A stretch of 64,000 bases of DNA from Escherichia coli (GTDB lineage Bacteria; Pseudomonadota; Gammaproteobacteria; Enterobacterales; Enterobacteriaceae): NCBI RefSeq assembly GCF_029227855.1, contig NZ_CP074356.1. One strand, written 5' to 3'. The position numbers and the translations under genes were made by a program. Positions 53,633 to 54,441 of the stretch are shown here, in pieces (position 1 is the first letter of the stretch; each line of letters starts with the position of its first letter). The notes under the pieces were generated by a model. It made no database searches, was not told the origin of the DNA, and saw nothing but the letters and a program-made list of their open reading frames with translations.

Positions 53633-53690
53633 GGAAGGGAAACTTGACTTCATACTGTGATGTCATAAAGTGAAGTCATAAGGGAATGTC

Positions 53691-53966
53691 ATGTAAACAC
53701 AGGTACAGGCTTTACGAAAGAAACAAAAAAACACACTGGATCAGCTATTTAAATCACCTTTACCTCAAGGAATCAAATGGACTGATATAGAATCTCTGGT
53801 TAAAGCGTTAGGCGGAGAAATTAAGGAAGGTAGGGGGTCGCGCTGTAAGTTCATACTAAATATGAGCGTTGCGTGTTTCCATCGGCCTCATCCGTCGCCA
53901 GATACCGATAAAGGCGCTGTAGAAAGCGTGCGTGACTGGTTACTAAGTATAGGGGTAAAACCATGA
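53691..53966 (+). pseudogene. HicA-like toxin gene with an in-frame TAA at codon 2 (ATG TAA ...)
   Basis: Frame 53691..53966 reads M * TQVQALRKKQKNTLDQLFKSPLPQGIKWTDIESLVKALGGEIKEGRGSRCKFILNMSVACFHRPHPSPDTDKGAVESVRDWLLSIGVKP*; HicA-like pattern (GS..KF, HRPHP, C-terminal helix); stop overlaps the downstream ATG; absent from the ORF track because of the TAA. Confidence 0.55.
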
Positions 53967-54322
53967 TCAAACTGAAGACGCCAAACTCTATGGAGATTGC
54001 CGGGCAACCTGCTGTTATCACTTACGTGCCAGAACTGAATGCATTTCGTGGCAAATTCCTGGGCTTGTCAGGTTATTGTGATTTTGTCTCTGACAGCATT
54101 CAGGGGCTGCAAAAAGAAGGGGAACTTTCCCTGCGAGAGTATCTTGAGGATTGTAAAGCTGCGGGTATTGAGCCGTATGCGCGTACAGAAAAGATTAAGA
54201 CCTTTACGTTACGCTATCCAGAATCGCTGAGTGAACGCCTTAATAATGCGGCTGCGCAGCAACAAGTCTCTGTTAATACCTATATTATTGAAACACTGAA
54301 TGAGCGTTTGAATCATTTATAA
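53963..54322 (+). CDS. HicB-like antitoxin with C-terminal ribbon-helix-helix DNA-binding segment
   Basis: ORF 119 aa; C-terminus KTFTLRYPESLSERLNNAAAQQQVSVNTYIIETLNERL is RHH-like; 4-bp overlap with the upstream frame. Confidence 0.55.
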   Translation: MIKLKTPNSMEIAGQPAVITYVPELNAFRGKFLGLSGYCDFVSDSIQGLQKEGELSLREYLEDCKAAGIEPYARTEKIKTFTLRYPESLSERLNNAAAQQQVSVNTYIIETLNERLNHL

Positions 54323-54376
54323 ATTTTAGCGGCGTACATTACGCAGAATATCTGCCTTTACAGGATCTATCTATGC

Positions 54377-54409
54377 AACTGAACTTAATTTTATAAATTA
54401 AGTTCAGTT
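54377..54409. terminator. Perfect 14-bp-arm palindrome between the HicB-like gene and nikR (terminator or binding site)
   Basis: AACTGAACTTAATT ttata AATTAAGTTCAGTT followed by a T-rich stretch on the plus strand. Confidence 0.45.
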
Positions 54410-54441
54410 AATATCTTTTCTTTCCTCGTTTCAGAAATAAC

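Follow-up and report, generated by a model that had tools for sequence, protein, structure and literature searches.

The DNA between yhhJ and nikR in the 64,000-nucleotide stretch of Escherichia coli sequence analyzed here (the window) is the hicAB-only allele of an ordinary strain-variable locus, and thus reflects ordinary genome plasticity. The explanation that we favor, and that we regard as very probable when taken as a whole, is that this allele lies exactly between the stop codons of the two flanking genes at a multi-allelic locus, that it was derived by loss of a sugar island, and that the Rhs element found at the same place in K-12 has a separate origin.

The conserved left flank is yhhJ (52508 to 53632, plus strand), which codes for an ABC transporter permease and ends with a TAA stop codon at 53630-53632. 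The gene is present in the list of open reading frames and carries this name in a genome that is 100% identical (L001). The conserved right flank is nikR (54442 to 54843, minus strand), which ends with TGA in the window and in K-12, and with TAA in island-bearing and empty alleles. These two genes converge on a gap of 809 bp (53633-54441) that includes a hicA-hicB gene pair and a perfect hairpin palindrome, in agreement with a preliminary description of this DNA, which gave the interval as only about 0.8 kb and noted a HicAB-like pair and a palindrome. That description also placed rhsB-yhhH-yhhI (several kb) between nikR and yhhJ in K-12. Indeed, in K-12 (MC4100) the same two genes flank a segment of about 6.7 kb consisting of yhhI (ISEc1), a HEAT pseudogene, yhhH, and rhsB, and we checked that K-12 does not have the same 0.8-kb interval.

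Junction-specific queries were run against 5,426 complete E. coli genomes, wherein a genome was counted if a single place covered 80% or more of the query. Five mutually exclusive junction types cover 5,407 of the 5,425 genomes that matched. The most widespread places Rhs sequence next to nikR (2,118 genomes, including K-12, O111:H8, and EC21Z-151). A PTS island adjoins nikR in 1,635 genomes, 581 of which also carry hicAB (for example O157:H7), leaving by subtraction about 1,054 with the island and no hicAB (for example SF-166 and NQ3). The hicAB-only allele of the window type is found in 1,488 genomes, including strain 600468. Finally, an empty allele, in which the two stop codons are just 8 bp (TTACGGGG) apart, is found in 166 genomes, including UPEC 536. 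The island is 5.8 kb long and includes genes for a GntR regulator, PTS components IIA, IIB, and IIC, an FGGY kinase, an HPr protein, and a class II aldolase. We searched the literature for evidence that it is the published frz operon; this identity was not established, and we make no such claim. There are also rare arrangements. Three genomes combine hicAB, the island, a DUF3829 gene, and the palindrome, and strain A30 carries an IS1-mediated deletion that extends from yhiM to hicB and has its end point inside the right arm of the palindrome.

With five main alleles and additional rare ones between conserved core flanks, the junction exceeds the three alternative contents by which a multi-allelic accessory locus can be recognized. 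Divergence among the alleles starts with the first base past each stop codon, and the stop codons themselves vary between TAA and TGA. Two adjacent slots can be distinguished. The slot beside yhhJ holds either a BIME/REP repeat or the hicAB cassette, and the slot beside nikR holds the 5.8-kb PTS/aldolase/kinase/GntR island, the Rhs-ISEc1 composite, a 108-bp palindrome spacer, or nothing. Allele comparisons revealed no target-site duplications and no att-like repeats. Because of this, and because the same cargo is present within near-identical flanks of different lineages, it is most likely that strains exchanged alleles through homologous recombination between their conserved flanks. Among B1 strains, for example, Rhs and hicAB-only alleles occur next to nikR flanks that are 99.6% identical.

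At strain-variable integration hotspots in E. coli, several alternative sets of genes occur between conserved core flanks, and neither an integrase nor an att site is dedicated to the locus. The window locus does not differ from them in kind, and what it offers is a series of alleles resolved to the base, with the two stop codons as boundaries. This series could be used as a compact illustration of how cargo is exchanged where two genes converge. The toxin-antitoxin (TA) family involved is annotated and the Rhs locus is catalogued, and the interval represents no new kind of system.

A rhs locus at nikR/yhhJ was reportedly catalogued in the ECOR surveys of C. W. Hill. The same flanking pair defines E. 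coli rhs locus 9 of Jackson et al. 2009 (PMC2935791), which in their set of 20 strains evolved in the K12/HS/ATCC8739 lineage. Rhs presence at this locus is lineage-restricted, and no Rhs element is present at the yhhJ-nikR position in any of the non-coli Escherichia loci that we fetched. For these two reasons, we take Rhs at nikR/yhhJ as derived, and the window is an Rhs-free allele of locus 9. The preliminary description went further, and proposed that the interval is an unoccupied and possibly ancestral Rhs insertion site at which the TA pair and the palindrome mark the entry point of rhsB. This proposal has in its favor that K-12 carries rhsB at the junction and the window does not, and its view of the window as Rhs-free and of Rhs as derived stands. 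However, we consider the proposal as a whole highly improbable. The site is occupied, in that hicAB is itself cargo and the truly empty allele is the 8-bp version found in 166 genomes. The window is also probably not the ancestral state, and it is not the state that preceded Rhs insertion in K-12, as detailed below. It differs from the catalogued locus 9 in being neither an empty site nor the K-12 progenitor, with hicAB plus a spacer as its cargo.

The K-12 locus carries no trace of the window interval. A blastn search (word size 7) with 53633-54441 against the Rhs loci of K-12, O111:H8, and EC21Z-151 yielded no match, and thus the alignment with the K-12 rhsB flanks by which the insertion point was to be located reveals no similarity to the interval anywhere in the K-12 locus. 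Homology between the K-12 rhsB leader and the window spacer was considered and rejected, with a local alignment score that fell within the shuffled null. Instead, K-12 has a BIME-type repeat in the 95 bp that follow the yhhJ stop codon. Over 87 bp, this BIME is 94% identical to that at the same position in SF-166, which carries the island only, and 88% identical to that of E. whittamii, while the other BIME copies in the sequences compared match the K-12 repeat over no more than 23 bp. The similarity between the K-12 and island-allele BIMEs stops inside the second REP unit, where the ISEc1-side sequence starts. An empty site split by the K-12 rhsB element was likewise not found, given that the left junction corresponds to the island-allele BIME and the right junction is unrelated. 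From these comparisons, it is evident that the K-12 Rhs composite arose on a BIME-bearing (island-type) background and not on a hicAB background. Because K-12 has no trace of hicAB or the palindrome and shares its BIME with an island-only allele, the window allele is not the precursor of the K-12 Rhs allele. The same pattern extends to the K-12-type Rhs alleles (2,118 genomes), which have no hicAB or palindrome sequence and carry the island-type BIME instead.

The TA pair and the palindrome also fail as markers of an Rhs insertion point. The alleles diverge immediately past the stop codons, and the spacer is limited to about 1,490 hicAB-only genomes plus rare variants. A single genome, BS-04, lends the insertion-site proposal some support from both sides of the junction. 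It carries an ISAs1-rhs composite that has 50-58 bp of the hicA promoter region on its left and about 80 bp resembling window positions 54360-54441 on its right (alignment score of 54, compared with a null maximum of 27). Thus, on at least one occasion an Rhs element may have taken the place of hicAB in an allele of the window type, although this lead comes from BS-04 only, whose junction is unique among the 5,426 genomes and whose noisy, error-rich assembly has 84.6% identity to K-12 rhsB with many indels. The broader correction is that a site is not empty or ancestral just because it lacks an element of K-12.

To judge which state is older, we fetched 80 nikR loci, using one genome per species, and scored the neighboring sequences. 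In E. whittamii, Escherichia sp. E1V33, and MOD1-EC7003, the PTS island adjoins nikR. In E. albertii, the island GntR gene adjoins nikR and is broken by IS1 at the end of the contig. All four of these non-coli Escherichia species have the BIME and no hicAB wherever the yhhJ side is visible. The island is also present in one Citrobacter amalonaticus genome, and in most Citrobacter species, as in Salmonella enterica subsp. diarizonae, yhhJ is separated from nikR by just 15-470 bp of REP/BIME sequence. Because other Escherichia species carry the island next to nikR, a sugar island beside nikR is the likelier ancestral state when compared to hicAB only.

A remnant in the window is consistent with this direction of change. 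In the hicAB-plus-island allele, a complete intrinsic terminator hairpin (TATAGCGGC...GCCGCTATA) and a T-run directly follow the hicB stop codon (TATAGCGGC...GCCGCTATATTTTTG). The complete hairpin is present in O157 and in Z1323HEC0462, and the window retains the left arm alone (54325 to 54333, plus strand), as revealed by comparison with the hicAB-plus-island allele. Homology of the window to that allele ends at 54333, and a megablast match to the O157-type sequence stops at query position 934, which corresponds to the same nucleotide. Because the window has only the left arm of a terminator that is intact when hicAB and the island are both present, its allele seems to have arisen by island loss, a direction suggested by a 9-nucleotide terminator remnant and a few outgroup genomes.

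Together, these comparisons support, with moderate confidence, an order that leads from BIME plus island to hicAB plus island and then to hicAB only. The starting point would be an Escherichia-wide arrangement of yhhJ, BIME, island, and nikR. In a first step, the hicAB cassette would have replaced the BIME, and in a second step the island would have been deleted or replaced in an event that truncated the hicB terminator. The K-12 Rhs allele would have originated separately on the BIME-bearing background. We likewise place moderate confidence in the view that the BIME-plus-island state gave rise, on separate paths, to the Rhs allele and to the empty allele. If so, the K-12 Rhs allele and the window allele were each derived independently from an older sugar-island allele.

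The opposite polarity also merits consideration. Under this alternative, hicAB beside nikR would be an old state shared by Escherichia, Citrobacter, Klebsiella, and Enterobacter, the hicAB-only allele would be near ancestral, the island would have been inserted later, and the BIME would have been substituted for hicAB. The wide distribution of the gene pair is what makes this alternative attractive. The order yhhJ-hicAB-nikR, with hicAB and nikR convergent, also occurs in C. sedlakii and in other Citrobacter. The collection contains the exact HicB sequence of the other Citrobacter in 199 blocks, and the gene order is the same at each of the three places listed. An independent search with HicB revealed that hicAB adjoins nikR in Klebsiella aerogenes-type records, and Enterobacter sp. 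JUb54 has hicAB-nikR with yhiN synteny. Against common descent of this arrangement, the island is present in the four sampled non-coli Escherichia species, which show a BIME and no hicAB wherever their yhhJ side can be seen, and the hicB terminator of the window is cut short relative to that of the island-bearing allele.

Protein identities also contradict vertical descent of hicAB. E. coli and C. sedlakii share 96% identity in NikR and 80% in HicB, whereas between C. sedlakii and Klebsiella/Enterobacter, HicB is 90-91% identical and NikR is 75-80% identical. Thus, the HicB tree disagrees with NikR, and so do the relationships among HicA sequences. Moreover, the C. sedlakii hicAB pair is flanked by a duplicated REP-like sequence of about 48 bp, as expected for an insertion. 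A Serratia homologue of HicB resides inside P2-like prophages, and additional homologues are found at unrelated sites in Dickeya and in [Enterobacter] lignolyticus. Because the HicB and NikR trees conflict, and because homologues occur in prophages and at unrelated sites, the hicAB cassette is evidently mobile. On balance, we judge that an old, vertically inherited hicAB-nikR arrangement is unlikely, and we prefer the order in which an island-bearing allele came first and hicAB arrived as a cassette.

The window pair has many characteristics of HicAB type II TA systems (PF07927/PF05534), including the position of the toxin gene ahead of the antitoxin gene, a 4-bp gene overlap, domain matches above the cut-offs, and an array of repeats at the promoter. 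The hicA reading frame (53691 to 53966, plus strand) spans 91 codons from an ATG at 53691 to a TGA at 53964-53966 and belongs to the HicA_toxin family (PF07927, 36.6-37.6 bits with a curated cut-off of 27). The hicB antitoxin gene (53963 to 54322, plus strand) is intact, codes for 119 amino acids, and matches Pfam PF05534 with 56.8 bits (curated cut-off of 21). The C-terminus of its product has a weak Arc/RHH-like match in Pfam (16.5 bits), which falls under the cut-off of 20.4. The genes form a bicistronic operon in which the TGA of hicA overlaps the ATG of hicB (53963-53965) within the sequence ATGA. Despite these likenesses, the pair differs from typical members of the family in that the 91-aa HicA/119-aa HicB subfamily has no solved structure detectable by sequence and in that the window hicA carries an early stop codon, which is discussed below. 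Searches against solved structures by sequence gave nothing for HicA and only weak, chance-level matches for HicB, NCBIfam and PADLOC models gave no match for this subfamily, and our literature search found no paper on this particular hicAB pair adjoining yhhJ.

A consensus scan predicts a sigma-70 promoter for hicAB at 53644 to 53671 on the plus strand, with the boxes TTGACT and TAAAGT separated by 16 nucleotides. C. sedlakii and Enterobacter sp. JUb54 preserve the TTGACTTCA box ahead of hicA. Over this putative promoter, a repeat finder identified three 13-nucleotide direct repeats of the type TGAnnTCATA (53645 to 53692, plus strand), and the outer repeat units TGACTTCA and TGAAGTCA are reverse complements of each other. 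Because type II TA operons usually autoregulate, these repeats likely constitute the HicB operator. Alignment with the P15-385, O157, and E69 alleles indicates that the operator-like array of intact alleles has four units, and that the window has lost one 14-bp unit, by which the -10 box TACTAT becomes TAAAGT.

The most consequential feature of the window hicA is a TAA at codon 2 (53694-53696), such that the gene does not have the intact toxin frame that defines a HicAB type II system. No in-frame ATG, GTG, or TTG is found after this stop before codon 57. PGAP calls a 76-aa hicA product that starts from a CTG at 53736 (codon 16; this is the annotation in L001), and this start has no obvious Shine-Dalgarno sequence. 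The shortened 76-aa call is present on at least 1,000 contigs. Thus, the window allele probably does not yield the HicA toxin, which would leave hicB as a probable orphan antitoxin. If so, hicA in the window lineage should be annotated as a probable pseudogene beside an intact antitoxin gene, and not as a 76-aa toxin that starts from CTG. Overall, we regard hicAB as a type II TA operon with operator-like repeats over its promoter, a toxin gene disabled at codon 2, and an intact hicB.

The changes in the hicA gene are confined to one segment. The window hicA differs from that of P15-385 at 25 of 276 nucleotides, all of which lie within a diverged block at about 53683-53843, and only seven codons are changed. 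By comparison, hicB differs from the intact alleles at zero or one position, and the HicB protein (WP_000593555.1) is identical in the window-type, P15-385, and O157 alleles. The diverged block looks like a segment recombined from a diverged hicA rather than the product of slow decay. The window-type 5' allele of hicA is present at 99% identity or more in 786 of the 5,426 complete E. coli genomes, including O104:H4, and versions of the diverged block with an intact codon 2 are rare (three contigs plus one contig, all short).

The 119-bp spacer between hicB and nikR begins with the terminator remnant described above, followed by a 43-bp segment (54334 to 54376) that is found only in the hicAB-only allele, since a blastn-sensitivity search matched it nowhere else in E. 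coli genomes and none of the nikR loci fetched contains it. Then comes the palindrome (54377 to 54409). The preliminary description gave it as a perfect palindrome with 14-bp arms; its perfection and coordinates hold, and the arms are 15 nucleotides each (54377-54391 and 54395-54409) with a 3-nucleotide loop. On the plus strand it is followed by AATATCTTTTCTTTCC. The remaining nikR-proximal 32 bp (54410 to 54441) are common to the rare DUF3829 allele and strain A30. The spacer with its palindrome is present as a single copy per genome in about 1,490 hicAB-only genomes and a few rare variants, and a search for diverged copies in E. coli at blastn sensitivity recovered the same 1,497 genomes as megablast. 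In IAI1 and O104:H4, the spacer is identical to that of the window. Among the 80 nikR loci from other species, the palindrome is absent except in two E. coli-like sequences, namely E. coli E69 and one contig from a MAG that bears the label Citrobacter sp. The DUF3829 allele carries it with two substitutions, and in Z1323HEC0462, which has this allele, a 157-bp BIME directly follows the palindrome between AGTTCAGTT direct repeats. The palindrome spacer itself does not fit a REP/BIME repeat, since it is single-copy and restricted to about 1,497 genomes, whereas the 157-bp BIME occupies a median of 10 places per genome.

Tight inverted repeats of the hairpin type with arms of 13 nucleotides or more number only five in the window, and the palindrome is among them. 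As RNA, its predicted folding energy is -15.3 kcal/mol (z = -6.7 relative to shuffles). On the plus strand, a 15-bp stem is followed by AAUAUCUUUU, and the sequence passes a lenient scan for terminator-like structures. As in bidirectional intrinsic terminators, a perfect hairpin lies midway between the stop codons of converging genes, and T-rich sequence follows on the plus strand. Its role as a terminator is putative by comparison with those elements, in that the stem is AT-rich (only 3 of 15 pairs are G-C) and the nikR (minus) strand has no U-tract after the palindrome. Every other allele also has a hairpin, different in each case, within about 40 nucleotides of the nikR stop codon. In the most economical reading, the palindrome would form a terminator or a 3'-end hairpin where the hicAB and nik transcripts converge, and would stand in for the cut-off hicB terminator. 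Such a hairpin might act by terminating transcription or by stabilizing 3' ends.

We also considered that the palindrome is mainly a target for recombination or insertion, as might be true of a cruciform-prone fragile site or a protein-binding site, and not a terminator. Three independent rearrangement end points at the palindrome invite this interpretation, namely the IS1-mediated deletion in A30, the BIME in Z1323HEC0462, and the break in homology between the window and the DUF3829 allele at the left edge of the palindrome. However, events that touch the palindrome are rare, and are represented by 1, 3, and about 1,490 genomes. In addition, no recombinase or repeat family is associated with this single-copy sequence, and the hairpin is situated exactly between two converging operons, passes the terminator-like scan, and has counterparts beside nikR in the other alleles. 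We therefore view a primary role as a rearrangement target as quite unlikely, and a hairpin that serves the ends of the hicAB and nik transcripts is the interpretation we retain.

Two mildly unusual leads emerged from this survey. One is that the hicAB-nikR neighborhood recurs across genera, and the other is that a toxin-null hicA is widespread together with a perfectly conserved hicB. It is conceivable, and in our estimation very unlikely, that the recurrent convergent adjacency reflects a preference of the cassette for the 3' end of nikR, or a functional coupling of the two ribbon-helix-helix regulators or of their converging transcripts, instead of common ancestry together with recombination of the flanks, and that, in a related manner, the toxin-null hicA with conserved hicB (about 790 genomes) represents a selected orphan antitoxin. 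Such an antitoxin might, for example, protect the cell against incoming phages or plasmids that bear HicA.

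Every difference between the hicA gene of the window (53691-53966, plus strand) and the intact alleles falls within a block of about 160 nucleotides (53683-53843). Most of these differences are synonymous, and the TAA at codon 2 also sits within this block. Between alleles, hicB and the spacer hardly vary. This mosaic suggests a gene conversion in which a diverged hicA was the donor. At an identity of at least 99%, the block was found in 786 genomes.

All examined members of the HicA subfamily represented in the window carry the sequence GRGSRCKF at residues 47-54 (window 53829-53852), which is followed by an invariant FHRPHP. 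GRGSRCKF probably lies at the position at which characterised HicA toxins have a G-S-H motif with the catalytic histidine.

Several rare E. coli alleles are rearranged near the palindrome that lies in the yhhJ-nikR gap (54377-54409). In strain Z1323HEC0462 (locus L091, 10900-12400), a gene for a DUF3829 lipoprotein-like protein is located between the PTS sugar island and nikR. A copy of about 25 bp of the nikR 3' end (GGCAGGCACTGCAAATGCCCGTG) lies to the left of this gene, and a 157-bp BIME insertion flanked by direct repeats (AGTTCAGTT) is found directly past the palindrome. Although only three complete genomes carry the allele, 246 collection blocks are indexed as encoding exactly this DUF3829 protein, with the same context in every place examined.

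Strain A30 (locus L096, 13300-14058) carries an IS1A element within the right arm of the palindrome. The genes from yhiM through rbbA, yhhJ, and hicAB are missing from this strain, and yhiN directly adjoins IS1-nikR. This arrangement is an IS1-mediated deletion. Strain BS-04 (locus L090) has a hybrid order consisting of yhhJ, a remnant of the hicA promoter (9001-9058), ISAs1, rhs, a palindrome-like remnant (about 14330-14412), and nikR. This hybrid was found in one of the 5,426 genomes, in an error-rich assembly, and may be either a real allele or an artefact.

Four further tight hairpin inverted repeats with arms of 14-17 nucleotides, three of them perfect, are located elsewhere in the window (7922-7967, 13047-13089, 21592-21624, and 37123-37154).

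Some of the records that carry this locus have doubtful labels. Two PLSDB 'plasmids', CP052389.1 (243 kb, linear) and LR134124.1 (791 kb), are both typed as non-mobilizable. Since both bear the chromosomal neighbourhood pitA-yhiN-mgtE-hicAB-nikREDCBA, they are probably pieces of chromosomes mislabelled as plasmids. The metagenome-assembled genome 'Citrobacter sp. HRGM_Genome_0066' includes two contigs that each encode a NikR matching the E. coli protein at 100% identity, and that differ in their allele (hicAB-only versus PTS island). This bin probably represents two mixed E. coli strains under a wrong label.

In Citrobacter sedlakii (locus L036), the hicAB cassette is placed between yhhJ and nikR with the same REP-like sequence of about 48 bp (CCGGCCTGCGGTCGCGAACTGCGCCAGGCCGGAGAAGCGCAGCGCAC) on both sides (about 10403-10495 and about 11150-11240). 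The cassette seems either to have entered a REP element or to have duplicated one. In two Serratia loci (L102 and L103, both 2729-3366), a hicAB pair with 80% identity is cargo of a P2-like prophage, with gpA replication and methyltransferase genes on one side and portal and terminase genes on the other. In Citrobacter amalonaticus AUH_CA_2023_1, the 471-bp yhhJ-nikR gap is made up of about five tandem BIME units of about 90 bp, and another C. amalonaticus genome has a single copy of this unit.
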